A DNA stretch of 64,000 bases from the NCBI GenBank assembly GCA_003327455.1, contig QOQU01000001.1, positions 258,337 through 322,336 of the forward strand, written 5' to 3'. Source of the DNA: Anaerolineae bacterium (GTDB lineage Bacteria > Chloroflexota > Anaerolineae > Anaerolineales > UBA4823). Below, in pieces: positions 8,805-42,750 of this stretch. The notes beneath the pieces were generated by a model. That model saw nothing but the letters and a program-made list of their open reading frames with translations. It had not been told where the DNA came from and ran no database searches. A program made the translations under genes and the position numbers. The number at the start of each line of letters is the position of its first letter. Position 1 is the stretch's first letter.

Positions 8805-9625
8805 CGCTTTGAATGCCCTGACGGGCGGTGGAGGACTCCACTGGGTGGGAAAGATGGAGGTCTGGATTGGTCTTAATGCCCTAACGGCGGACAAGGGGGA
8901 TTCGGATTTGTTCGGTCGGGACGAGCGAAGCCCAAGGGGCATCATTCGGGCTATTGCGTGCCCCTTCTACTGGGCTAGCAGGCGTCCCGCCTGCTGTTGC
9001 GCATCTCGCACGGCCCCTTCGGTCGGGACGACCGAAGCCCAGCAAGTGCCAGCGACGGGCGGACAAGGATTCGGACCCCAGATTTTCAAGTGCGACGGGC
9101 AACTTCACATTCGTTGTCCGTCTTAATGCCCTAACGGGCGGACAAGGATTCGGACCCCAGATTTTCAAGTGCGACGGGCAACTTCACATTCGTTGTCCGT
9201 CTTAATGCCCTAACGGGCGGACGAGGATTCGGACCCCAGATTTTCAAGTGCGACGGGCAACTTCACATTCGTTGTCCGTCTTAATGCCCTAACGGGCGGA
9301 CAAGGATTCGGACCCCAGATTTTCAAGTGCGACGGGCAACTTCACATTCGTTGTCCGTCTTAATGCCCTAACGGGCGGACAAGGATTCGGACCCATAACG
9401 GCAGTCGCTTTGAGTTCCGCACTGCCGGGCATGGGTCTTAATGCCCTAACGGGCGGACAAGGATTCGGGCTAAAGGGGGGTATGCAATACGTTTTTAACA
9501 AGGGGGTTATCGTGAGTCTTAATGCCCTAACGGGCGGACAAGGATTCGGGCAAATGAAGAGGTATCTGTTCTACCATTACGGAAAATGGTCTTAATGCCC
9601 TAACGGGCGGACAAGGATTCGGGCC
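8805..9625 (-). CRISPR. Orphan CRISPR array. It has 7 intact 36-nt repeats (9120, 9199, 9278, 9357, 9435, 9516, 9590), one 5'-truncated repeat (about 9055-9076) and two degenerate repeats (about 8805-8840, 8870-8906)
   Basis: Repeat GTCTTAATGCCCTAACGGGCGGACAAGGATTCGG(A/G)C with 38-45 nt spacers. Minus-strand reading ends ..GGGCATTAAGAC (ATTGAAAC-like handle), and the degenerate repeats lie at the left end, so a minus orientation with the leader at about 9626-9760 is proposed (orientation confidence about 0.5). No cas ORF in the window. Confidence 0.9.
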
Positions 9626-15028: not shown

Positions 15029-15154
15029 AAGAATGGCTGGGACGTCGTGAGCATCGTTGCATCCCATCCTGCTACCCAAAAGCCATCTCGCCCCAAGACG
15101 TCCCACGCCAGATTTCTCTTTCGAGAACCCGACCGGTATGTTATAAGGAGTATT

Positions 15155-16690
15155 ATGAAGCCTACAGTATTGATCATTGGCGCAGGCATCGGTGGCATTG
15201 CAGCAGCAGCTCGCCTGGCAAAAAACGGTTTCCAGGTTACCGTAGTAGAAAAAAATGACCAGCCAGGCGGTCGGTGTGGGCAATTCAGCCGCGATGGGCA
15301 TCGCTTTGACATTGGCCCAACCCTTTTCCTGATGCCGGAAGTCTGGGATGAGACGTTTACTGCCCTCGGTGAGCGCATGAGCGATCACCTCGATTTGCGC
15401 CGCATCGATCCGACCTACAAAGTCCACTTTGAAGATGGCTTGCAGATAGCCCTCACTTCCAATCTGGGGGCGATGCAGACCCAATTAGAACGCGTCGAGA
15501 AGACCGCCTTTACCGGCTTCCTGCACTATATTGCTGAAGGCAGCAAACACTATAAAATTTCACTGGAGAGGTTTGTCGGGCGCAATTTCTACAGCCTGCT
15601 GGAGTATTTTTCACCGGCAAATCTCCCTCTGCTCTTTCAACTCAAGGCACTGGTCAAGCATTATGATAATGTCGGCAAATACTTCACCGACCCGCGTCTC
15701 AAAGCAGCCTTTACCTTTCAGAATATGTACCTGGGTTTGAGCCCCTATGATGCCCCGGCAACCTATTCCCTGCTGCAATACACCGAACTTGCCGAAGGGG
15801 TCTGGTATCCTATCGGTGGTATGTACGCCCCGATTCAGGCGCTGACCGCCATCGCAGAGAAACTGGGGGTACAGTTTGTCTATCATGCCGAAGTAACCCG
15901 CATCGAAACCTCCAATGGAAAGGTAGAGCGGGTTCACCTCAAAGATGGACGTACATTGCAGGCTGATATCTATATCGGTAACGCCGACTTGCCATATATT
16001 TATAAAGAACTCTTGCCCGATCCAGACGCGGCGCGCAGGTTCGATAAGATGCTCTACACCTGCTCGACCATCATGTTTTACTGGGGCGTGGATAAAGCCT
16101 ATCCGCAAATCGCCTTACACAACGTTTTCCTGAGCGGCGACTATAAGGCATCCTTCGATCGCATTTTCAAGGATCACACCCTGCCGGATACCCCTTCGTT
16201 CTACGTTCACGCGCCAACGCGAGTTGACCCTGCGGCTGCCCCGCCTGGTCAGGAAACGCTTTTTATCCTCGTGCCGGTTGGTCATCTCGATGAAAGTCGT
16301 CCGCAAGATTGGGAAGCGATGGTAAACCATGCTCGCCAAACCGTTTTCAACCGCCTTGCCAGAGAGATGAACGCCGCCGATTTGCCCGAACACATCAAAT
16401 TTGAAGTGGTGTACACAGCCCAGGACTGGAAGCAACGCTTCAATCTCGATAAGGGAGCAGCCTTCGGTCTCAGCCATAACTTCTGGCAGGTTGGCTATTT
16501 GCGACCCCAAAACCGGCATCGCCGTTATCGCAACCTGTACTTTGTCGGCGCTTCCACGCATCCGGGCACCGGCTTACCCATCGTCTTGCTCTCTGCCCGT
16601 CTGACTACGGAACGCATTCTGCGTGAGTGCAGCTTCTTATTCCAGACGAGGACAGACTCACAACCCCTTCAAACAGCGGTACCTTCATGA
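15155..16690 (+). CDS. crtI: Phytoene desaturase (start moved to MKPTVLIIGAG after AAGGAG)
   Basis: FAD fingerprint VLIIGAGIGGIAAAARLA; CrtI-family length; C-terminal FVGASTHPGTGLP motif. Confidence 0.9.
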   Translation: MKPTVLIIGAGIGGIAAAARLAKNGFQVTVVEKNDQPGGRCGQFSRDGHRFDIGPTLFLMPEVWDETFTALGERMSDHLDLRRIDPTYKVHFEDGLQIALTSNLGAMQTQLERVEKTAFTGFLHYIAEGSKHYKISLERFVGRNFYSLLEYFSPANLPLLFQLKALVKHYDNVGKYFTDPRLKAAFTFQNMYLGLSPYDAPATYSLLQYTELAEGVWYPIGGMYAPIQALTAIAEKLGVQFVYHAEVTRIETSNGKVERVHLKDGRTLQADIYIGNADLPYIYKELLPDPDAARRFDKMLYTCSTIMFYWGVDKAYPQIALHNVFLSGDYKASFDRIFKDHTLPDTPSFYVHAPTRVDPAAAPPGQETLFILVPVGHLDESRPQDWEAMVNHARQTVFNRLAREMNAADLPEHIKFEVVYTAQDWKQRFNLDKGAAFGLSHNFWQVGYLRPQNRHRRYRNLYFVGASTHPGTGLPIVLLSARLTTERILRECSFLFQTRTDSQPLQTAVPS

Positions 16691-17994
16691 CACCATTAAG
16701 CACAACTCCGGCGTTTAATCTCAAGGTAGTTCTCAAAGAAACCGGCATCCGCCCGGATACCCTGCGGGCATGGGAACGTCGGTATGGTTTACCCAAACCG
16801 CAGCGCTCAGCGGGAGGGCATCGTCTCTATTCTGAGCGCGACATCGAGACGATCAAGTGGTTGATGGCGCGCCAGGAGGAAGGGCTTTCCATCGCTCGCG
16901 CGGTTGACCTCTTGCGCAGTCAGATCGCCCAGGGGAACGACCCCCTCGAACACATCGAACCACCTCCATTGCAGCCCATAGCCACACCGGGTACGCTGGA
17001 AAGCATCCGTCAGGACTGGGTAGAAGCCTGCCTGGCTTTCGACGAAAAGCGGGCAGAAGGATTGCTCAATCAGGCTTTTGCTCTTTTCCCGCTCGAAACG
17101 GTCGTAACCGAGATACTCCAATATGCCATGATCCAGGTGGGGGAGCAGTGGTACCAAAACGACATTTCCGTCCAGCAGGAACATTTTGCCTCGGCGCTTG
17201 TCCAGCGGCGCTTAAATGCACTGATTGCTGCCTGTCCCCCGCCCACTCGCCCGGAAGTGATCTTAGTCGGCAATCCGCCCAGCGAGCAACATCTGATTCC
17301 GATCTTGATGTTGAATCTGTTTTTGCGTCGGCGCGGTTTTGGCGTCGTGGATATCGGCGCCAATGTGCCGGTTGCCAAATTTGATGAGACGGTGGAGCGG
17401 ATTAAGCCCCATCTGGTCGTTCTCAGCGCCCAACGTTTGAGCACGGTTGCTCCGATGATCGAGGTGATCCTCTCTCTGCATCCCCTGAAGACCCAGATTG
17501 CCTATGGAGGGCGCATTTTTAACCTTTTACCCCAATTGGTCGACCTGATACCGGCGCATTACCTGGGCAAGAGCCTGGATGAAGCAGTGCGCAACATCGA
17601 ACGCCTGCTCAGCCAGCGACCGCCTCTGCCACTTCCTTCAGCTAAGTTGCAAACGTACCAGCAGACAGCAGAGGTTTTTCGCCATCTCCGCCCACAAATC
17701 GAAGCGAAACTGTTTGAAGAGTTGAGCCCATACAACCTGCCCGAGGAATACCTCACCACTGCCATTGAAGACTTTGGCGATGTGCTTCACTCGGCTCTGG
17801 CAATTGGTGATCTGGATGCCATTCATCCAGAACTGGAGTGGCTGCGCGGCTTGCTTCATCAACATCATCTCCCCGACGGCATTCTCGCCCCGTTCTTAAT
17901 GGCATACGCACAGGCGGTGCGTTCGATGGAGGTAGCCCAACTGACGCCCCTGGTGGAGTGGTTAAAAACAACCGCTGAAAGAGTTGTGGCATAG
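16687..17994 (+). CDS. MerR-family regulator with a B12-binding domain (CarH/LitR-like) and an extra C-terminal region of about 120 aa
   Basis: MerR HTH (LKETGIRPDTLRAWERRYGLPKPQRSAGGHRLYSERDI); B12-binding fold (ILVGNPPSEQHLIPILMLNLFLRRRGFGVVDIG..VVLSAQRL..YGGRIF). The ATG overlaps the crtI stop (ATGA). Confidence 0.8.
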   Translation: MTPLSTTPAFNLKVVLKETGIRPDTLRAWERRYGLPKPQRSAGGHRLYSERDIETIKWLMARQEEGLSIARAVDLLRSQIAQGNDPLEHIEPPPLQPIATPGTLESIRQDWVEACLAFDEKRAEGLLNQAFALFPLETVVTEILQYAMIQVGEQWYQNDISVQQEHFASALVQRRLNALIAACPPPTRPEVILVGNPPSEQHLIPILMLNLFLRRRGFGVVDIGANVPVAKFDETVERIKPHLVVLSAQRLSTVAPMIEVILSLHPLKTQIAYGGRIFNLLPQLVDLIPAHYLGKSLDEAVRNIERLLSQRPPLPLPSAKLQTYQQTAEVFRHLRPQIEAKLFEELSPYNLPEEYLTTAIEDFGDVLHSALAIGDLDAIHPELEWLRGLLHQHHLPDGILAPFLMAYAQAVRSMEVAQLTPLVEWLKTTAERVVA

Positions 17995-18029
17995 GTCAGC
18001 CTGAGATTGTCTTCCAGAACGGGTAGCAC

Positions 18030-19424
18030 ATGCCGACGATTTGGTGGATTCGCCGTGACTTAAGACTGACCGACAACGGCGCGCTGCATGCTGCCCTTCA
18101 AGAGGGAGAAGTCATCCCATTATTTATTCTTGATCCACATTTGCTCGCCCATTCTGCCCCCAAACGGCTTAATTTCCTCTTTGGCGGCTTGCAGGCTCTG
18201 GATGAAAGCCTGCGCCAGCGCGGCGCGGCGCTGATCCTGCGCCGCGGTGAGCCCCTGACCGTCTTGCGCCAGATGCTGGCAGAGAGCGGCGCTGTGCACG
18301 TTTATGCCGAAGAAGACTACACGCCCTATGCGCGCCGCCGCGATGAAAAAATCCGGGCTGAAATTCCGCTGCATCTCATCGCCTGGCAAACCGTTCATCA
18401 TCCGGCAAGGGTGCGAAAGCCGGATGGAAAGCCTTACACCGTTTACACTCCCTACGCCAAAGCCTGGAAAGCAAACCTGGTTGATCTCAAACTCCTGCCA
18501 GCCCCTGAACGGATCATCCTGCCGCCCGGTCTCTCCAGTGAACCCTTGCCGCCTTTTCAACCCGAGGCACACTTTCCGCCCTCGGAACAGGAAGCGCAGT
18601 TGCGCCTTGAAGAGTTCACCCGTTCAGCCTCCGTTCCCTCTCTGCGCAGGGGATGGGGTGGCATCTTTACCTATGCCGAACAGCGCAACCGCATGGATCT
18701 GGACGGCACTTCCCAGCTTTCGCCCTATTTACGCTTTGGCATGCTTGGAATGCGGCAGGCGGTCTTTGCAGCCGTGCAAGCCATGCGCACTTCGCCACCC
18801 GGAATGAGCAAATCGGCTGAAACGTGGTTGAACGAATTGATCTGGCGCGAGTTCTACATTCAAATCCTGTATCATTTCCCTTACGTTCGGCGAGAGGCAT
18901 TCAACCGGGCTTTTGCGAACCTGCCCTGGCAGAACGATGAAGCCGCTTTTCAGAGTTGGAAAGAGGGATTGACCGGAATGCCGATCGTGGATGCCGCAAT
19001 GCGCCAGTTGCGCCAGATGGGCTGGATGCACAATCGCGCCCGCATGATTGTGGCTTCCTATCTGGTTAAGGACATGTTGATCGACTGGCGCTGGGGAGAA
19101 GCATGGTTTATGGAGAACCTGATCGATGGTGATCTGGCTGCCAACAACGGCGGCTGGCAATGGACAGCCGGCACCGGCACCGACGCTGCACCCTATTTTC
19201 GCATCTTCAATCCCGTTTTACAAAGTCGAAAATTTGATCCCTACGGAGCTTATATCCGCCGCTGGGTGCCCGAACTGCGCCACCTGGATGACGATGCCAT
19301 TCATGCACCGTGGCTCAAAGGGGTTCGGGTTGCCGGTTACCCCTCGCAGCCGGTTGTTTTACCCGATAAAGCCCGCACTTTAGCCGTCTATCGTTCAGGG
19401 CGAACTGGTCAACAGCGAAGCTGA
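18030..19424 (+). CDS. phr: Deoxyribodipyrimidine photolyase
   Basis: IWWIRRDLRLTDN N-terminus; FAD-binding C-terminal half (WREFY, GWMHNRARM, DGDLAANNGGWQW). Confidence 0.9.
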   Translation: MPTIWWIRRDLRLTDNGALHAALQEGEVIPLFILDPHLLAHSAPKRLNFLFGGLQALDESLRQRGAALILRRGEPLTVLRQMLAESGAVHVYAEEDYTPYARRRDEKIRAEIPLHLIAWQTVHHPARVRKPDGKPYTVYTPYAKAWKANLVDLKLLPAPERIILPPGLSSEPLPPFQPEAHFPPSEQEAQLRLEEFTRSASVPSLRRGWGGIFTYAEQRNRMDLDGTSQLSPYLRFGMLGMRQAVFAAVQAMRTSPPGMSKSAETWLNELIWREFYIQILYHFPYVRREAFNRAFANLPWQNDEAAFQSWKEGLTGMPIVDAAMRQLRQMGWMHNRARMIVASYLVKDMLIDWRWGEAWFMENLIDGDLAANNGGWQWTAGTGTDAAPYFRIFNPVLQSRKFDPYGAYIRRWVPELRHLDDDAIHAPWLKGVRVAGYPSQPVVLPDKARTLAVYRSGRTGQQRS

Positions 19425-22637: not shown

Positions 22638-22714
22638 CGGGGTGTGGCGCAGTACGGTAGCGCACCGCGTTTGGGACGCGGGGGTCGGCGGTTCAAGTCC
22701 GCCCGCCCCGACCT
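22638..22714 (+). tRNA. tRNA-Pro (anticodon TGG)
   Basis: Hand-folded cloverleaf: acceptor CGGGGTG/CGCCCCG, D stem GCGC/GCGC, anticodon stem CCGCG/CGCGG with loop TTTGGGA, T stem GGCGG/CCGCC. Confidence 0.9.
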
Positions 22715-23050
22715 TCGCAGTGGATTAACTAACTTGATAAGGTCGTTACTCGCTTATATTGTCACGCAAGCAACCCGAAAAAGCCGAAAGCAAGCGGAGC
22801 GGAACGCAGTGGAGCGGAGCGCAGCTTTCGGCTCAGGGTTGCTTGCGTAGGTTCGGGTGGGTGGGGGTTTGGGATGGTTTCAATCCGCGCGGGAGGCACT
22901 TCTTACCTGACACGCTCCTAACCTATCACCTGGAGAAGCGCGGTCGCGTTTTGCCAATTTTCCCCCCAGGAAAATTGAGCAAAACGGTTCATTGAATCTA
23001 TTCGACATTCTTCAACCGGATGAAAGCAATTCATCCTATACACTCTTTCT

Positions 23051-23222
23051 CTCCACAACCAGGCTAAGGCTTTCTCTCTCTGCCGGCGTTCCATCTCTGA
23101 CCTGGTTATAGCTTTCTCTCTATGCCGGCAATTCATCCACAACCTGGCCAAGTATTTCTTTCTACAACCTGGCTAAGGCTTTCTTTCTACAACCTGGCTC
23201 TGGCTTTCTTTCTCTGCCGGCG
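23051..23222. repeat. About 5 imperfect tandem repeats, core ACAACCTGGCTAAGGCTTTCT(C/T)TCT(CTGCCGGCG)
   Basis: Read directly. A related CTGCCGGCG(a/t)TCCATCTCTGACCTGG(c/t)TAT(a)GCTTC block recurs at 24894-24930 on the other side of the gene module. Confidence 0.75.
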
Positions 23223-23337
23223 GTATATCTCTCTCAGTTGTATAAGCGGTACGGGTTTATAAGGGGAAGGTTGGTTTGATGAGTAGATGAGATCGGGGTA
23301 TTGGTTGGCGGTTCGATGCGCAGACGTTCCACAGTTG

Positions 23338-23511
23338 TTAGCTGTCCGAATCCTGGTTGTTTTGGTTTTCTTCTGATTCTTTGTCTAAATCAATTCGAAA
23401 CAAAGGATAATGATTCTCTGGATAGGGATTAGCAAGGGAGATTAGGGCAAGGATGAATAGAAGGATGATGAAAGTTTTCAGGAAGCAGGTTAATTCAAGG
23501 ATATCTAGCAT
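23338..23511 (-). CDS. 57-aa small membrane protein (hand-called; MLDILELTCFLKTFIILLFILALISLANPY...)
   Basis: The ATG overlaps the upstream stop (AAATGCTAG); one TM helix. Last gene of the island module. Confidence 0.45.
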   Translation of the reverse strand: MLDILELTCFLKTFIILLFILALISLANPYPENHYPLFRIDLDKESEENQNNQDSDS

Positions 23512-23711
23512 TTGGGTTTCCTGATGGGGTTTTTCGATGGTTGAAGTTGGTTCAGGATTTCTTTGATTTGCTCCAGGCGTTCGGTGATTTTATTCAGGGC
23601 TTCAAGGTGCTTTTCGTCTTTGATTTCCTGGCGTTTCATGAGTTCGAGGGTGTACCAGATGAAGATGGCCAGGAGGGGGAATTGGATGAAGACAGGTAAA
23701 AGGTCTTGCAT
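23505..23711 (-). CDS. 68-aa N-terminal TM plus coiled-coil protein
   Basis: LPVFIQFPLLAIFIWYTL TM followed by a charged helix. Tightly packed in the module. Confidence 0.5.
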   Translation of the reverse strand: MQDLLPVFIQFPLLAIFIWYTLELMKRQEIKDEKHLEALNKITERLEQIKEILNQLQPSKNPIRKPKC

Positions 23712-23715
23712 GGGT

Positions 23716-24093
23716 TTATTCCTGGTCGGTAAGGGTTGATGCGTTTTGGGTTAGTTCATGGGTGAGTTCTTTCAGGATGTTGGTGAGGGGGTTTTGTTCT
23801 TCTCGCCGGCGAGTTTCGATGATGGATTGGGTGTTGTAGATGCGGGCGATCGAAAGGGTTATTTTCAGCATGGTGTCGATGTAGGTTAAAAGGGTTTCCT
23901 GGCTGATATTGGATGATTTCAGTTCTGCCATGATTCTTCTCCCGATTACTCTAAGGGCGTTTATTTCGGATTTTAGGGTTTCATCCAGGTTGTCAAGGTC
24001 GGCTCTTTCCAGTTGTCTAAATGCGCGGGCATAATAGCCATGTTTGAGGGCATTTAAGTTTCCTCTCGGCGCGCCTCTGTGTTTGTGATCCAT
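23716..24093 (-). CDS. 125-aa protein with an N-terminal GAPRGNLNALKHGYY motif, unknown function
   Basis: I associate the GAPxGNxNAxKHG motif with small phage/plasmid-borne proteins. This rests on memory only, with no homology search. Confidence 0.45.
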   Translation of the reverse strand: MDHKHRGAPRGNLNALKHGYYARAFRQLERADLDNLDETLKSEINALRVIGRRIMAELKSSNISQETLLTYIDTMLKITLSIARIYNTQSIIETRRREEQNPLTNILKELTHELTQNASTLTDQE

Positions 24094-24290
24094 AGGATTC
24101 TGGCTTTTTGATTGATATTGCGAAGGTGCAGGCGAACGGTTTGGGGTGATAGGTTTAGTTCTTGGGATATTTCTTTTTTCGATTTGCCGGCATTGCGCAG
24201 GTCGTTGATGATGCGTTCGGTATGGGTGAGGATGGGGATATTGTTACCGGTGAGATAATACCTGGTTTGATTGGTGATGATGATCCGCAT
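24054..24290 (-). CDS. 78-aa LuxR/sigma70-region-4-type HTH protein
   Basis: SKKEISQELNLSPQTVRLHLRNINQK helix-turn-helix. Confidence 0.55.
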   Translation of the reverse strand: MRIIITNQTRYYLTGNNIPILTHTERIINDLRNAGKSKKEISQELNLSPQTVRLHLRNINQKARILWITNTEARREET

Positions 24291-24474
24291 GGCTTGTTTT
24301 GGTTGATTGAAGTTTTTCCAGAATGGGGCGGGGGATAGGTTGATTGTTGAGCAGGCATTTGAGAAATAGACGGTATTCTTTATCGTTCAGGTTTTCGATG
24401 GCGGAGGTTGAGAAGGTGTAATGGGTTCCGTCCTGGTAGATGGTGCAGGTCATATGGGGGATGGTGGTTGTCAT
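24244..24474 (-). CDS. 76-aa hypothetical protein (start moved to MTTTIPH, 2 nt after the upstream stop)
   Basis: ORF packed as TAAGCATG after the Zn-ribbon gene; no recognisable motif. Confidence 0.4.
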   Translation of the reverse strand: MTTTIPHMTCTIYQDGTHYTFSTSAIENLNDKEYRLFLKCLLNNQPIPRPILEKLQSTKTSHADHHHQSNQVLSHR

Positions 24475-24476
24475 GC

Positions 24477-24734
24477 TTAGATTCCGAGTTTGTAGTTCAG
24501 TTCTTCTTGGAAGCAATCGTGGCAAAGGGGGAGTTCGACTTTGTAGGCGCCATCTTCACCGACGCTGGTTTCGAGGATGATAACGGCTTTGTTTCCGCAT
24601 TGGCAGTTTAGTTGTCTTCTTTTATAGGCGGGGTCGTTGCGGTGGCAGGGCAGGCATACGCCTAAGCCGTTGCCTTCTCCCAGGTAGGGAAGGTTGCAGA
24701 TTTTACAATTTGGTTTGATGCGGATGTTGGGCAT
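24477..24734 (-). CDS. 85-aa Cys-rich zinc-ribbon protein (island copy); paralog of 41206-41505
   Basis: CKIC..CLPC..CQC..CHDC; alignable with CRSC..CLAC..CAC..CEQC of the 41206 gene, including shared LPYL and VE(L/I)PLC blocks. Confidence 0.65.
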   Translation of the reverse strand: MPNIRIKPNCKICNLPYLGEGNGLGVCLPCHRNDPAYKRRQLNCQCGNKAVIILETSVGEDGAYKVELPLCHDCFQEELNYKLGI

Positions 24735-24747
24735 GTTTCCTCTCCAA

Positions 24748-24796
24748 ATAGAACGTTTGTTCTATTTATTTTAGAGAAGTTTTACTTAAATGTCAA
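24748..24796 (-). promoter_or_regulatory. Island module promoter (TTGACA 24791-24796, 17-nt spacer, TAAAAT 24768-24773) with a Cheo-type LexA box ATAGAACGTTTGTTCTAT (24748-24765) over the predicted start site
   Basis: Read directly; perfect GAAC-N4-GTTC core. Confidence 0.65.
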
Positions 24797-24947
24797 TCGG
24801 GGAATTGGCTTGCGAATGGGGCGAATTCATGCTAAGATAAGGTATCTTTCCCTCCCAAGCCTCTGATGGTTGTAAGCCATCAGGGGCTTATGTTTGCCGG
24901 CGATCCATCTCTGACCTGGCTATGGCTTCAGGTTATTAATTGAGGTG

Positions 24948-24956
24948 TGTTATAAT
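24948..24956 (+). promoter_or_regulatory. Extended -10 promoter candidate (TGTTATAAT) firing rightward into the 35-bp repeat array
   Basis: TGnTATAAT read directly; no good -35. Confidence 0.35.
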
Positions 24957-25000
24957 ACAGGTGGCTTCTCTCTATGCCCTTGATGGTTGCCATCCCATCG

Positions 25001-25187
25001 GGGGCATTTTCAATCTAACGACAATTTACCCACCGTGGGCATTTTCAATCTAACGACAATTTACCCAGCTGGGGCATTTTCAATCTAACGACAATTTACC
25101 CAGCTGGGGCATTTTCAATCTAACGACAATTTACCCACCGGTGGCATTTTCAATCTAACGACAATTTTCCCACAGGGAAAATTGTCG
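25001..25187. repeat. Five exact-period 35-bp tandem repeats (GGCATTTTCAATCTAACGACAATTTACCCA + 5 variable nt) ending in a 13-bp perfect hairpin CGACAATTTTCCC-aca-GGGAAAATTGTCG
   Basis: Unit starts at 25004, 25039, 25074, 25109 and 25144. Hairpin 25159-25187 followed by GTTCATTTTA. Confidence 0.9.
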
Positions 25188-25708
25188 GTTCATTTTAGAT
25201 AAAAACGCCCCAACCTTGCCCAAGCCGAACACGAAGTCGGATAAAGAGGTTATTTTAGCTTTTCTTATCTGAGTGGTTTTTTCAACCTTGCCCAAGCTAC
25301 GGCTGGGCAAGGCGTAAGTTTTGCCCCTAATCCCCCTATCCCGCCCCCCCATGTTAGACTTTCCTTGCTGGGGTGTGGGGGTTGGGTGGGGGGGCTTGGG
25401 GGGGCGGGAGGGGGAGGGGCAAAATTGGGGCGTGGTTCATTCTTCCAGGGGGTTTGTCAGGTGGGAAGGGGCTAGTTTTCCAGGTGAGGGCGGTCGTTCG
25501 GTTCGCATGGCTGAGCAAACGGACTATAACCCGGTCGTGTCAGGCGTTTTTGTTCAAGGGGCTATTGCATGACCTGATAACCTTTGCATTAAGTGCCTCT
25601 GTGTTTGCGCCAGCAGGTTTTGCCTGGGCATTTTCAGGCGTGGGCTGGGCGGCGCGGTTTCTTTTCCTTGTTTCTACGCCGGCGGTTGTTGAAAACGATT
25701 ATCATTAT

Positions 25709-25993
25709 CAGGAAGAGAAAGAATAAAATTGTAAAGTCCATGTCGCACGTCATGAAAACGAATTTCATTATCAATATCTTTATTCGGAGACAAGCTTCAT
25801 TTAACTTGTTTCTGCTCGAAGCCAAATACGCGCAAGCCGCTATTCTGTAACGCATGATAGACTCGCCCGGTGCCGCAACCCATCTCCGAACGTTTTTTCC
25901 GTCATTGTTCGCTTCATTTAACTTGTTTTCATCCCGGCTTTAGGACGCGGGGGTCGGCGGTTCAAGTCCGCCCGCAACTCACGCAAGCAACCC
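25709..25993. other. Collinear micro-copy of the upstream chromosome: four short blocks identical to 20944-20979, 22407-22478, 22674-22706 and 22762-22776
   Basis: Blocks at 25709-25744 (36/36), 25816-25887 (71/72), 25943-25975 (33/33) and 25979-25993 (15/15), same order and orientation. The linkers contain GCTTCATTTAACTTGTTT twice. Confidence 0.85.
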
Positions 25994-26100: not shown

Positions 26101-26220
26101 TTGCTTGCTCAATGTCTGGCTACGATTCGGTCCGCGGTGAATGCTTGCTCAATGTCGATCTACGATTCGGTTCTCGGTGAATGCTTGCTCGGTGTCGATC
26201 TACGATTCGGTTCTCGGTGG
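26101..26220. repeat. 3 x 40-bp tandem repeat (TGCTTGCTCAATGTCGATCTACGATTCGGTTCTCGGTGAA)
   Basis: Copies start at 26101, 26141 and 26181. Confidence 0.85.
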
Positions 26221-26431
26221 TTGTTTAATTGGTGTGGCTTAACAAGAATAAAAGCGAATCCGGGTTTGGGTTAGTGGGGGAATGGCGGTTCAAGTCCGCC
26301 CGCCCCGACCTTCTGGGGGCATAAAACGATCGGTTGCGAAAGTGCGACTCCCATTTATTGTGTTTTTACTGCAAAAGCCTTAAATGGGCTGCTCCCCTTG
26401 CCCACCGAAACACCCAAACGCCTATGTCCTT

Positions 26432-26790
26432 ATCCCTCACCCTGACCCTCTCCCTGAGGGAGAGGGAACCTGACTCCCCTCGCCCATTGGGAGAGGGGTT
26501 GGAGGTGAGGGCATTCTCCAATCCCTCACCCTGGCCTTCTCCCTGAGGGATAGAGAACTTGACTCCCCTCGCCCATTGGGAGAGGGGTTGGAGGTGAGGG
26601 CATTTTCCAATCCCTCACCCTGGCCTTCTCCCTGAGGGAGAGAGAACTCAACTCCCCTCGCCCATTGGGAGAGGGGTTGGAGGTGAGGGCATTTTCCAAT
26701 CCCTCACCCTGGCCCTCTCCCTGAGGAATAGAGAACTTGACTCCCCTCGCCCATTGGGAGAGGGGTTGGAGGTGAGGGGGATAAGCCCTT
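26432..26790. repeat. 4 x 89-bp tandem array of the complete 'GEG' nested-palindrome unit
   Basis: Unit atCCCTCACCCtggCCCTCTCCCtgaGGGAGAGGGaac..CTCCCCTCGCCCattGGGAGAGGGGttGGAGGTGAGGGcatt. Copies start at 26432, 26521, 26610 and 26699. Confidence 0.9.
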
Positions 26791-38255: not shown

Positions 38256-38496
38256 GGAGGAAATGAGGAACGTTTTCCACCATAGCGTGCTTGGATAGGT
38301 GCCATCAATCCTCTCATGAATTTGCATGATAACAAAATCTTGGAAAATTATGGACGTCTAAGCCATCATTTCCTCACTTCTATCTTTTGCCTTCCTTACT
38401 ATCCCACCTCACCCTAAAAAAACAACCCACTAAATCTTTCAAAGGCGGGTTGGTTTTTATGCTATGATGAAAGCGTATGGTTGAGGAGGTTTGAGT

Positions 38497-41181
38497 ATGG
38501 AGATTGGTTTGGTCCGTCAGGTGGATATCGACCGCGAAATGCAGCAGGCGTATCTGGATTATGCCATGAGTGTGATCGTGGCGCGTGCTTTGCCCGACGC
38601 CCGCGATGGTTTGAAACCCGTCCAACGGCGTATTTTATACGCCATGCTGGAATTGGGCTTGCGGCCCGACAGCGCCTACAAGAAATCGGCGCGCATTGTC
38701 GGAGAGGTGCTGGGAAAATTCCATCCGCACGGCGATATGGCTGTTTATGAAGCCATGGCTCGCCTGGCGCAACCCTTTACGATGCGCGTTCCGCTGGTAG
38801 ATGGGCAGGGCAATTTTGGCAGTGTGGATGGCGATCCGCCAGCAGCCATGCGCTACACCGAGGCGCGGCTCACTGCCGCCGCCATGCAACTGCTTGCCGA
38901 CATTGACAAGGACACGGTCGATTTTGCGCCGAACTTTGACGATACCCTGCGTGAACCGACCGTTTTGCCGGCCGCTTTCCCCAATCTGCTGGTCAACGGG
39001 GCAACCGGGATCGCCGTAGGGATGTCCACCAGCATCCCACCTCACAACCTGGCAGAAGTAATCGACGCACTGCGCCATCTGCTGCTGAATTGGGAAAAGA
39101 TGGACGACATCACCATCGAGGACTTAATGCGGTTCATTCAAGGGCCTGATTTCCCCACCGGTGGCATCCTGCTGACCGCTGAGGGAGAGCACTCGCTTGC
39201 CAGCGCTTATGGGAGTGGACGCGGGCAGGTTGTCGTCCGCGCCCGGGCTCACCTGGAAGAAATGGAACGCGGTCGCAGCCGTATTATTGTCACAGAGTTA
39301 CCTTATACCGTCAACAAAGCAGCTCTGATCGAACGCATCGCCGAGCTGGTGCGCGAGGAAAAGCTGAGCGGCATCACGGATCTACGCGATGAATCCGACC
39401 AGCGCGGCATGCGCATTGTGATTGAGGTGGGCAAAAACGCTGACCCCGAACAGGTTTTGGGAGAGTTATATCGCCATACGCCCATGCAGTCAACCTTTAG
39501 CATGATCTTGCTGGCACTGGTGGACGGCGAACCCCGTTTGATGAGCCTCAAGCAAGTTTTGCGGGTTTACCTCGACCATCGCCTGACCGTCATCCGCAGG
39601 CGCAGCGAATATGAATTGCGGCGCGCCCGTGAGCGCGCTCATATCCTCGAAGGGTTGCGCGTGGCGTTAAAAAACCTGGATGAAGTCATTGAACTCATTC
39701 GCAAATCACCCGATGCAGAGACTGCTCGCGGGCGCTTGATGCGTCGGTTCAAATTGAGCGAACTGCAGGCGCAAGCGATTCTGGATATGCCCCTGCGCCG
39801 CCTGGCAGCCTTAGAGCGTAAAAAAATCGAACTGGAATATCAAGAATTGCTCAAGCGGATCAAAGAACTGGAAAGCCTGTTGAAATCGCCGCCCAAATTG
39901 CGCGCCCTGGCAGCTGAGGAACTGGCAGCCGTTAAAGACGCTTTTGCCGAGCGACGCCGCACCCAAATCGCCGCCAGCGCTACCCGGGGTGGCCCGCTTG
40001 CTCTGACAGTGACCGATCTTACCCCCCAGGAGGAAACCTGGATCAGCATCACCGCCCAGGGGTTGATCGCCCGCAGCGAATCCGGCAAACCGCCCCGCCT
40101 GAGCGGCAACGAAGCGCCAGCCTGGTTGCTTAAAGCTTCCAGTCGCGATACGATCTATCTGGTAGCGGAGAACGGCGAATGCGCTGCCATTGCCCTGCAC
40201 AGTCTGCCACCATGCACTCGCCCCGGCGAAGGTTTGCCTCTGGGAGATGTTTCTCCCTTGAAAGACCCGAACACTCTGGCCTGTCTGTTCGCCCTGCCAC
40301 CCAAAGGCGAACGCCCTGAAGGAGCTTATCTCCTGACCGTAACTCGGCAGGGCTACGTCAAGAAATCTGCTCTGGATGAAGTGATAGGACCAGCCGCCCA
40401 TCTCTTTCAACTGGCAAAAGTCAACCCAGGCGATCGCCTGGGTTGGGTTCACCTGACGCGTGGGGATCAGGAAATCCTGCTGGCGACGGCGCAGGGAATG
40501 GCAATCCGCTTTTCCGAGCAGAGCGTACGCCCGATGGGATTGGTGGCTGCTGGCGTGCTGGGGATTAAGTTGAGCGAGGCGGATGAAGTGATTGGCGCTG
40601 CAATCCTGCCCAAAGCTGGCGATGTCCTCCTGGTCGCCTCAGATGGGCGTGCGAAGCGTCTGGCAGTTGAGCAATTCCCCCTCCAGGGACGCTATGGGCA
40701 GGGGGTTCAGGCGTGGAAATTAAGCCCGACTTCCCGATTGGTCGGTATGGCGGTTGGCAAAGCCACCGCCCAAGCCACGCTTTTTTTGGAGAAACTTGCC
40801 CCGAAGAGCATCCGCTTTGACGAAGCCCCCCTGCAGACGCGCGCCGGGCGAGGCAAGGCAGTGCAGGAACTGAAACCCGGCGATCGGATTGTGCGCCTGG
40901 TGGTGGCATGGGAGAGCGGAGAGATGAAATCTGAACCGACCTCGGCGCGCACTAGCCGCGGCAGGGCGAAAAAAGCGTCCGGTCAACCACAGCAAGCCTC
41001 ACTTCCTGGGAAGAAAAGCCTGCCCCAGGAAGAACAGACCGATGCATCAACGATTGGGACAACACCCACTCGCCGAACGCGGCGTACAACCACGGATGCC
41101 GAGACGCCACCTCAATCATCTACCCCTGCCAGCCAGGCAAGGCGCACCCGCAAGAAGCCTTCACCCCCTGCCCAGGGTTGA
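38497..41181 (+). CDS. gyrA: DNA gyrase subunit A with a basic low-complexity C-terminal tail of about 90 aa
   Basis: [30 protein letters not shown], catalytic-Tyr region AAMRYTE, GyrA-box-containing CTD repeats. ATG at 38497 after GAGGAGG. Confidence 0.95.
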
Positions 41182-41205
41182 TCGCCGGACGGCAAAATCC
41201 AGGCT

Positions 41206-41505
41206 TCAAAAGTGGGAAGCTAATTTCTCAGCCCTCCGTTCCTCCTCAATAGCGGAGGAGCGAACTGATTGGCACTCCCAACTCTCCAATTCCAGCGCCA
41301 GGCATTGCTCACAAAGGGGAATTTCTACGGCGTATTCCCCGTTTAAACCGACCCGATCGAGCAAGACGGTTACGGCAATCTCGCCACAGGCACAACGTAG
41401 CCCAACCGGACTGCTACCTCGTAAGCAAGCCAGACAAAGACCATCTTTCCCGTTCAGGTAGGGCAGGTGACAGGAACGACAAGGGGCTTTAAGAGAAGCA
41501 GGCAT
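41206..41505 (-). CDS. 99-aa Cys-rich zinc-ribbon protein (chromosomal paralog of 24477-24734)
   Basis: CRSC..CLAC..CAC..CEQC; convergent with gyrA, 24 nt apart. Confidence 0.65.
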   Translation of the reverse strand: MPASLKAPCRSCHLPYLNGKDGLCLACLRGSSPVGLRCACGEIAVTVLLDRVGLNGEYAVEIPLCEQCLALELESWECQSVRSSAIEEERRAEKLASHF

Positions 41506-41541
41506 TTTTCCCTTCCTTTGGATGATTGCCCTTATCTTAGC

Positions 41542-41581
41542 AGAACATACGTTCTATAAATAAGCGATTAAACAGGGTGAA
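41542..41581 (-). promoter_or_regulatory. Promoter (TTCACC 41576-41581, 17-nt spacer, TATAGA 41553-41558) overlapped by the Cheo-type LexA box AGAACATACGTTCT (41542-41555)
   Basis: Read directly; perfect GAAC-N4-GTTC core. Confidence 0.6.
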
Positions 41582-41595
41582 TTTTTGGCGAGTCT

Positions 41596-42750
41596 CTAGC
41601 CCGGAGGGGCAGGAAGCGGCGGCGGAGGTGGGAAAAGCCAGGCAAGCAACCTCCCCAAAGACCAGACCAGTGGAGGAAACCAGCCCTGCCCTGCCAGCCG
41701 ATAACAGACCTCGGCAGTGAACCAGCGTGTCATCAGATAACGTCCCAAATAGGATTTTCTCAACCGCCTGCGATAAGTGGAGAATGAGAAATCCTGACGT
41801 TCGAAGGCATCGATGATCGCCTGCGCCGCCAGTTGTCCATACGCCAGCGAGGGGGCAATGCCTTCGCCAAACAGGGGATCGACTCCAGCAACCTCGCCCA
41901 CCAGCAGCAGGCGCGGGTACGCAAAGCGATTGCGCGGACTAAACCAATGGATGGGGTGACTCTGCCATGCATCTCGCAGAGAGCCATACGCCTGAGAAAA
42001 CGCAGTTTCAAGAAACACCGGTAAGGGCGCAGGTGGCTTGCGCTGGTCCAGACGGGCATCGTAGAGACCACGGTTGAAGGCGGCTGTGCCGTTTTGGAAA
42101 AAGGGAAAATCCCATACGTAGCCCTGCAACCCCTCTTTGAGTAAACTGAAATCAAACAGGGTGGCGGCGCTCTGAAAGAGTTCTGCCGATGGACGAGCGG
42201 GTTGGACGACCTCCAGGGTGCGGGCAAGGCGGGCTTTGGCAGTACGGCGGCGCGTCCAGCGGCGGGTAATTCCGTTGGCACCGTCCGCTCCCACCACCAC
42301 TGTAGCAGAATATTCTCTCTCTGGAGTGCGTAAGACCACCGTCTCGGGCAGAAAGATGATCTCTTTCACCTCCTTACCCTCTTCAATTTGGATTCCTCTG
42401 GCTCTGGTTTGTTGTGCAAGATAGGCATCCAGCTCTGCGCGGTTAAAAATCACCAGTTGGGGTTCTCCACATAGGGTGACCACCTGGCGCTGATACCTGA
42501 ACCGAACTTCTTTGACGGCAAATTGGGGTAAGGGCAAGGGGTAAGGAAAATCCAGTTCCTGTAAGATGCGAAATCCCAGGCGGGTCACCGCGCCGCCGCA
42601 TAATTTGAAGCGCGGATAACACTCTTTTTCCAGCACCAGCACTCGTTTGCTCCACTGCGGCGAATAGCGCAGCAAATGTAAGGCGGTCGAAAGCCCACCT
42701 GGTCCGCCGCCGATAATGATCACATCATAATGCGCCTGGGCGCTCATCAT
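41596..42750 (-). CDS. FAD-dependent oxidoreductase, geranylgeranyl-reductase-like
   Basis: YDVIIIGGGPGGLSTA dinucleotide fingerprint, GADGANG motif, length about 380 aa. Confidence 0.6.
   Translation of the reverse strand: MMSAQAHYDVIIIGGGPGGLSTALHLLRYSPQWSKRVLVLEKECYPRFKLCGGAVTRLGFRILQELDFPYPLPLPQFAVKEVRFRYQRQVVTLCGEPQLVIFNRAELDAYLAQQTRARGIQIEEGKEVKEIIFLPETVVLRTPEREYSATVVVGADGANGITRRWTRRRTAKARLARTLEVVQPARPSAELFQSAATLFDFSLLKEGLQGYVWDFPFFQNGTAAFNRGLYDARLDQRKPPAPLPVFLETAFSQAYGSLRDAWQSHPIHWFSPRNRFAYPRLLLVGEVAGVDPLFGEGIAPSLAYGQLAAQAIIDAFERQDFSFSTYRRRLRKSYLGRYLMTRWFTAEVCYRLAGQGWFPPLVWSLGRLLAWLFPPPPPLPAPPG

Follow-up and report, generated by a model that had tools for sequence, protein, structure and literature searches.

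What is the role of a small Cys-rich protein whose gene lies tail-to-tail with gyrA and carries a LexA-type box in its promoter? The question is raised by a 64,000-nt stretch of an Anaerolineae bacterium (contig QOQU01000001.1, positions 258,337 to 322,336), hereafter the window, in which the chromosomal gene for a 99-aa protein with two predicted zinc sites occupies 41206..41505 on the minus strand. A paralogous gene for an 85-aa protein leads the operon of a small island (24477..24734, minus strand). The original prediction, made from the window alone, had offered a division inhibitor or a gyrase-acting protein as possible roles. The reading tentatively favoured here, a good possibility that stops short of being probable, is that the protein would be a LexA-repressed, damage-induced partner of a LuxR-type (sigma-region-4-like) helix-turn-helix (HTH), shared by chromosomes and small SOS-controlled elements.

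The 99-aa gene, taken from the open reading frame (ORF) listing, is genuine and encodes a small cytoplasmic protein with two Cys4 sites. The first site is an N-terminal CxxC-x11-CxxC ribbon (C9/C12 with C24/C27) and the second a C-terminal CxC...CxxC module of a beta-hairpin plus helix (C38/C40 with C65/C68). Residues 1-76 form the conserved core, followed by an acidic C-terminal tail (77-99) that varies among orthologs. No hydrophobic segment was found on inspection of the sequence. A ribosome-binding site, GGAAGGG (41511..41517, minus strand), is located 5 nt 5' of the ATG, and the GGAAGGGAAA(A/G)ATG block of this region was kept in the promoter alignment. The island protein was 43% identical to the 99-aa protein across 75 residues (BLASTP, E 3e-16); both contain a pair of Cys4 sites and lack a membrane segment. 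As originally proposed, their genes are genuine paralogs. A word-index search yielded 11 ortholog clusters of the 99-aa protein (70-98% identity, 75-103 aa), all from Anaerolineae/Anaerolineales metagenome-assembled genomes and annotated solely as hypothetical proteins. The gene is carried by the genomes GCA_003130835.1, GCA_025057645.1 and GCA_036781705.1, among others.

Such word-index searches recover close relatives only. Family size was measured with a full hidden Markov model search that used the alignment of relatives: against 1.84 billion representatives, clustered at 50% identity, E fell below 1e-3 for 94 clusters and below 1e-10 for 22. Metagenomes were also scanned with a degenerate DNA pattern, designed by hand from the fixed spacing of the C-terminal module; it matched 71 loci, every one of which (71/71) encodes a family member. 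The two-member family envisaged at first is thus too small. This previously unnamed family occurs in Anaerolineae-type genomes and small mobile elements. Eight Cys were invariant in an alignment of 13 relatives (C9, C12, C24, C27, C38, C40, C65 and C68), and these might make the protein thiol- or redox-sensitive. The relatives fall into two architectures, two-module proteins as in the window and proteins consisting of the C-terminal module only with a very basic tail. The consensus of the C-terminal module is LRCDCGxxAVTVxxVxVGxDxxYxVxLPLCxxCLxLExE. A two-module subgroup (P0020, P0023, P0024, P0026, P0028, P0030, P0044 and P0060) additionally has a conserved C-terminal tail, NPxQ(I/V)VVVKSLPRxxxxLxG(R/K)KL.

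AlphaFold2 (AF2) gave confident models, with predicted local distance difference test scores of 93.7 (99-aa protein) and 87.4 (a C-terminal-only member of 54 aa). In the models, a small ribbon is followed by a beta-hairpin clamped onto a helix via the second Cys4 site. The predicted strands and hairpins fall at the invariant Cys, consistent with the paired CxxC knuckles on beta-hairpins that characterise zinc ribbons. Searches of Pfam, NCBIfam, PHROGs and PADLOC gave no meaningful match for the two window proteins or the distant members; the zf-UBR and DZR_2 Pfam matches seen among 51 members scanned were weak and Cys-driven, and a sequence profile search of the PDB produced ribosomal zinc-knuckle noise only (E of at least 0.03). 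The family could thus not be assigned to any named domain, in agreement with the original prediction, and although relatives were found, none belongs to a characterised family in these libraries. The Lsr2 dimerisation domain, also a beta-hairpin plus helix, recurred as a Foldseek match at insignificant scores and was not used. No relatives were present in 2.9 million IMG/VR viral contigs, 50,697 GenBank phage records or 72,556 PLSDB plasmids, and an ordinary phage gene was discarded as an explanation because these searches were empty.

The LexA-type operator of the 99-aa gene, AGAACATACGTTCT (palindrome AGAAC-N4-GTTCT), is located at 41542..41555. Just two zero-mismatch copies of AGAACN4GTTCT were found in the window, one in the promoter of each paralog, against a chance expectation estimated as 64000/4^10 = 0.06 per window. 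As sites with up to two mismatches were not enriched (15 observed vs 20.5 expected), only the two perfect palindromes were considered meaningful. The box is also conserved upstream of orthologs, being perfect in six of eight promoters, and it precedes distant relatives. The left arm, AGAAC, was intact in those six, had one change in L011 and was destroyed in the L001 lineage. Across all eight promoters the sequence GTTCTG-n-TA..AT was invariant despite diverging flanks. It includes a probable extended -10 element, TGcTAAGAT (41534..41542, minus strand), in which the T of the TG doubles as the final operator base (41542). A weak candidate for the -35 element is TATTTA (41557..41562, minus strand), with a 17-nt spacer to TAAGAT. 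The promoter originally proposed, TTCACC-17-TATAGA (41553..41581, minus strand), does exist as letters (TTCACC is the reverse complement of 41576-41581 and TATAGA that of 41553-41558, 17 nt apart) and is overlapped by the box. However, the more distant orthologs (L004, L009 and L032) have not kept it. Since GTTCTG-n-TA..AT is invariant and these hexamers are not, the extended -10 is more likely to be the real promoter. A consensus scanner called no sigma-70 promoter in the upstream region under either reading.

The association between operator and family extends well beyond the orthologs. For the 44 loci that could be assessed (those whose upstream sequence extends to 550 nt or more), an exact operator was found upstream of the family gene in 28, compared with 0 of 193,839 other positions in the same loci. 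In the first 23 loci (155 kb), GAACN4GTTC sites were found exclusively before family genes. The 36 distinct family operator sites gave the consensus AGAACATATGT(T/G)CT, and the imperfect right arm GTGCT present in many of them supplies the TG of an extended -10. Distant members preceded by the box include those of L038 and L032. In L020, AGAACAAAAGTTCT is followed by TATTAT; in L021, TATAAT is followed by AGAATATATGTTCT; and in L095 the box occupies the spacer of a consensus TTGACA-17-TATAAT. The C-terminal-only members (L024-L094, e.g. L034, L047, L065 and L076) have a common promoter-operator, cTTGtggaat-AGAACAWWTGTGCTATAAT. For L015 (392-724, P0015), the box is 40 nt inside the annotated ORF and 28 nt before the likely true ATG (M28, reassigned); the start in the public annotation is probably 27 codons upstream of the real one.

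The strongest functional clue, seen in three architectures, was fusion to, and conserved neighbourhood with, GerE/LuxR-type HTH proteins. Three representative clusters (P0082, P0099 and P0104) combine the Cys-rich module and, C-terminal to it, a GerE/LuxR HTH in one fused protein. Ten metagenome loci, of about eight types, have a co-oriented GerE-type gene that stops 16-190 nt short of the CxC motif, and such pairs of GerE and Zn-module genes are usually behind one single box. Four of the neighbour proteins scored 32.7-51.6 bits against Pfam GerE, and the GerE domains of family loci also matched Sigma70_r4 models. The island operon and its diverged version in L015 both carry Zn and GerE genes. 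A further boxed operon, present in L022, L044, L071, L061 and L090, encodes an HTH protein of about 300 aa (MARPLLPPRG...), a protein of about 165 aa and then a Zn-module protein; in L022, L044 and L071 this third gene encodes a C-terminal-only member. Neither the ~300-aa nor the ~165-aa protein had a Pfam match, and the gene order is reminiscent of an integrated element's early operon.

Based on these fusions and neighbourhoods, the product may bind a LuxR-type, sigma-region-4-like HTH and serve it as a regulatory domain in trans, a suggestion that is plausible yet held with reserve. The three fused clusters resemble one-polypeptide LuxR/FixJ regulators and MqsA-like zinc-plus-HTH proteins in having a Cys-rich module N-terminal to the GerE HTH. 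They differ in that the module is here mostly a separate small protein, as in both window genes, and neither in Pfam nor in Foldseek did the module resemble receiver, autoinducer-binding or MqsA zinc domains. The WhiB-like (Wbl) proteins and T4 AsiA offer an analogy: they are small factors, some of them Cys-rich and also present on mobile elements, that act on the HTH of sigma region 4. The Cys spacing of the WhiB-like proteins differs from that of the present family, with its eight Cys in two sites and a putative HTH partner, and the Whib signature (C-x(n)-C-x2-C-x5-C) was absent among the Pfam matches of the 51 members.

The island paralog places the same module in a mobile setting. Its gene is part of a low-GC element of about 3.3 kb at a tRNA-Pro gene (22714..25975; GC 44-48% in the GC profile) bounded by 42-nt direct repeats. 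Nucleotides 22665-22706, the 3' end of the tRNA-Pro, recur at 25934-25975 (93%) and partly at 26262-26303. A 15-mer at 22762-76 was found again at 25979-93. The operator AGAACGTTTGTTCT, a perfect palindrome at 24750-24763, lies just downstream of TTGACA (24791-96) -17- TAAAAT (24768-73), and the same layout was seen in L016 and L017. It is followed in order by the gene for the 85-aa Zn protein, a 76-93-aa ORF, the gene for a 78-aa GerE/LuxR-type HTH protein (24054..24290, minus strand; Pfam GerE 39.2 bits against a cut-off of 23.5, E 5.5e-10) and a 125-aa small-terminase-like protein (23716..24093, minus strand; PHROG 1889, E 3.7e-6). A 96%-identical copy of the 85-aa protein was present in two other metagenomes.

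A 34-nt repeat (TGCCGGCG.TCCATCTCTGACCTGG.TAT.GCTT) flanks a 1.8-kb unit (23081-24928) that holds the entire Zn-GerE-TerS-like operon. L016 and L017, from other metagenomes and 98.7-99% identical, fuse 24928 straight to 23115, head-to-tail, which suggests that the 1.8-kb unit exists in tandem or circular form. No integrase ORF was found in the ~3.3-kb element, and the 1.8-3.3-kb element is also without capsid genes. Just 5' of the island promoter is a 35-bp iteron-like tandem repeat (GGCATTTTCAATCTAACGACAATTTACCCA...) of 5.3 copies (24994-25177) with an inverted copy at its end; it might serve as a replication origin or as an array of protein-binding sites. To the right of the island are two more tandem arrays, 40 bp x 3 and 89 bp x 3.9 (94% identity), at 26102-26219 and 26432-26778. 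L015 is a diverged island-type cassette that retains the Zn, GerE-like and TerS-like genes, and a GerE-like ORF is present in L028 as well. The terminase-small-subunit-like ORFs of the window (23716-24093) and L018 (5676-6029) have a common N-terminal 'N-x-N-A-x-K-H-G' motif; in L018, a locus unrelated to the window island, this 'NAIKHG' ORF precedes the family member.

Two kinds of element offer a precedent. Like Ogr and Delta of P2 and P4, the island protein is a zinc protein of roughly 70-85 aa whose gene neighbours packaging-type genes on a small integrated element. LexA control is not known for Ogr or Delta, and Pfam Ogr_Delta was not matched by the window protein or the 51 members. As in GIL01, coliphage 186 (tum) and the Gifsy antirepressors, the early promoter of the element carries a LexA-type box like that of the host (island, L022, L044 and L071), so that the SOS response of the host would set the element off, but the element here measures only about 1.8-3.3 kb and its first gene encodes a protein with no relation to gp7, Tum or Ant.

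These features could also be read as an induction switch of the mobile element, the Zn protein being an SOS-triggered antirepressor or activator that launches replication and packaging of the element and the chromosomal copy a stranded, LexA-responsive remnant with little or no host function. The island copy does lead a LexA-boxed operon that includes GerE and terminase-small-subunit-like genes with iteron-like repeats nearby, L015 holds the same cassette, C-terminal-only members are third in boxed operons behind an HTH protein (L022, L044 and L071), and the L018 member is paired with the 'NAIKHG' ORF. The chromosomal gene, however, is syntenic in at least seven lineages, down to 70% identity, with intact Cys, ribosome-binding site and promoter, which favours selection in the host, and the viral, phage and plasmid collections contained no relatives. 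This explanation was judged unlikely as a whole. The chromosomal copy is instead probably a domesticated version of a mobile-element module.

Whether the palindrome belongs to LexA was considered separately. It could be the operator of a GerE/Zn autoregulatory circuit or of an element-encoded repressor, in which case the genes would not be damage-regulated; the near confinement of the box to the vicinity of family genes in 541 kb fits this idea. GAAC-N4-GTTC is the LexA motif of Firmicutes and Actinobacteria (PMC3323433). The family operator core and its AT-rich spacer (GAACATATGTTC) equal this classical Gram-positive LexA consensus (PMC3323433), which argues against a different repressor. So does the repressor-like placement of the site, between or over the -35, the -10 and the transcription start: it abuts TG-n-TAnnAT in the window, fills the L095 spacer and lies right after the island TAAAAT. 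The box is also found before stand-alone genes with no GerE gene nearby (window, L004 and L009) and before one unrelated ORF. The latter is a second perfect box in L032, AGAACTTATGTTCT (9464-9477), about 18 nt 5' of an 86-aa ORF (MEIGMLWFDNDPK...) that had no Pfam, NCBIfam or PDB match. An extra box before an unrelated ORF is expected of a global regulator, and this ORF is a candidate further SOS gene of the lineage. A repressor other than LexA was therefore regarded as quite unlikely, and the palindrome is very probably bound by LexA, which would place the family genes under its control. The Gram-positive LexA regulon (Cheo box) is similar in palindrome core, AT-rich spacer, promoter overlap and ortholog conservation; it differs in that the regulated family here has no known relative and in the GTGCT arm that doubles as the TG. 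Chloroflexi LexA reportedly uses the same motif (Fernandez de Henestrosa et al. 2002, on Dehalococcoides).

An SOS cell-division inhibitor akin to SulA, YneA or SidA, which would block FtsZ or the divisome during repair, was one of the two roles first suggested. Small size and LexA-type control are shared with SulA, YneA, SidA and SosA, and SOS checkpoint proteins are lineage-specific and mutually unrelated in sequence (e.g. SosA and DidA). YneA, SidA, DidA and SosA are membrane-anchored, however, whereas the 99-aa protein lacks any hydrophobic segment, membrane anchor or LysM domain and is homologous neither to SulA nor to YneA, SidA or SosA. A link to division genes was seen in none of about 90 loci; the recurrent partner, by fusion and neighbourhood, is a DNA-binding GerE/LuxR HTH, which would be superfluous for such a role. 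With nothing in its favour from the comparison, division inhibition appears improbable.

The acidity of the window protein and its long charged C-terminal helix, together with SOS control of the gene, would suit a modulator of the SOS machinery that binds RecA filaments or LexA, as do DinI or GIL01 gp7; in GIL01, itself a LexA-controlled element, LexA is indeed the target of a small element-encoded protein. The acidic tail varies even among orthologs, though, most family members are basic and similarity to DinI or gp7 was absent, leaving this role very improbable.

The adjacency that gave rise to the gyrase idea is accurate in itself. The 896-aa gyrA gene (38491..41181, plus strand), whose product is 85% identical to GyrA of related Anaerolineae loci, has its stop 24 nt from the end of the 99-aa ORF, as originally stated. 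A terminator-like hairpin over the stop codon of the 99-aa gene, within this gap (41203..41220, minus strand), is weak, with 1 observed vs 1.2 expected by chance. Yet gyrA is downstream of 99-aa orthologs in three lineages only (window, L001-type and L009-type); the downstream gene is ComM/Mg-chelatase-like in L004-type and type I restriction HsdR-like in L008-type loci, and the adjacency is absent in L032-type orthologs and every distant member. By contrast, the FAD-dependent oxidoreductase gene upstream of the 99-aa gene on the same strand (41596-42750) is present in all orthologous loci. A modulator that binds GyrA/GyrB after damage, like YacG, a zinc-finger gyrase inhibitor, or the SOS-induced SbmC/GyrI of E. 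coli, can therefore be set aside as scarcely credible, for although YacG is a small zinc protein, SbmC is SOS-induced and the window gene abuts gyrA, the linkage is lineage-limited and the genes convergent (tail-to-tail, hence not co-transcribed), the family has no homology to either, and Pfam YacG was matched neither by the window protein nor among the 51 members. The gyrA adjacency is best described, from the comparison of loci, as a lineage-specific accident of synteny.

Elsewhere in the window, a light-response-like cluster (15047-19424) comprises an amine-oxidase/phytoene-desaturase-like gene, a MerR plus B12-binding (CarH-like) regulator and a DNA photolyase; a LexA-type box was absent from all of its genes. 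An Rfam scan of the window returned two tRNAs only, with no riboswitch or small RNA at the 99-aa locus.

Under the favoured reading of a LexA-repressed HTH partner, transcription of the 99-aa gene would start from the extended -10 promoter, with the GAAC-N4-GTTC operator occupying its spacer. In the undamaged cell LexA would occupy this site and keep RNA polymerase from transcribing; once DNA is damaged, self-cleavage of LexA, stimulated by RecA, would lift the repression. These steps are proposed because of the identity, position and conservation of the motif. The protein would then act on transcription by binding a LuxR/GerE-type HTH with its sigma-region-4-like fold, taking the place of the regulatory or oligomerisation domain of one-polypeptide LuxR regulators, a role put forward because of the gene fusions and the conserved gene neighbourhood. 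In the small LexA-controlled elements the same module would be the first product of an SOS-induced operon, the chromosomal copy standing alone.

Several observations count against this reading. Foldseek comparison of both AF2 models with the PDB, and of the full-length model with BFVD, gave nothing at E < 0.01, and no structural analogue was found that would indicate a specific biochemical role. The metal could be Fe-S instead of Zn. The 99-aa protein is acidic (isoelectric point 5.3) in a family with a basic median (8.7-9.5), owing to its non-conserved C-terminal helix. Its gene has no adjacent GerE gene, and the partner would therefore be encoded elsewhere, or be a different one. About a third of the 44 assessable loci lacked an exact box, as did the fusion locus L096. 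In one ortholog lineage (L001/L002/L003/L012, upstream of P0004; GTGACATCGAGGTTCT) the left operator arm is lost; with the right arm and the -10 kept, the gene is probably expressed constitutively there. Finally, regular-expression searches of 541 kb of the loci for RecA, LexA, Uvr, RuvB, DinB and RecN motifs gave no match, and neither these loci nor the window contain a lexA, recA or uvrA gene whose promoter might show the box.

Promoters repressed by LexA, and elements that rely on the LexA of their host, are already well known; the libraries searched describe neither the protein family nor its fold nor the pairing with GerE. A bolder proposal, rather doubtful at present, is that of a new damage-induced switch, in which a metal protein freed by LexA cleavage docks on a GerE HTH and reprograms transcription. 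It would serve as the SOS trigger of the integrase-less 1.8-3.3-kb elements and as a second-tier SOS regulator of Anaerolineae. SOS regulons beyond Proteobacteria, Firmicutes and Actinobacteria are poorly mapped, and the damage response of Chloroflexota is almost without experimental definition. With the tempting gyrase story removed as unsupported, what is left for those interested in SOS networks, Chloroflexota and small mobile elements is a gene-operator association among the tightest obtainable from sequence alone, with the GerE HTH as a clear candidate partner. The family may thereby provide an entry point to the rewiring of Anaerolineae transcription after DNA damage, and a second to the coupling of very small integrated elements to host LexA.

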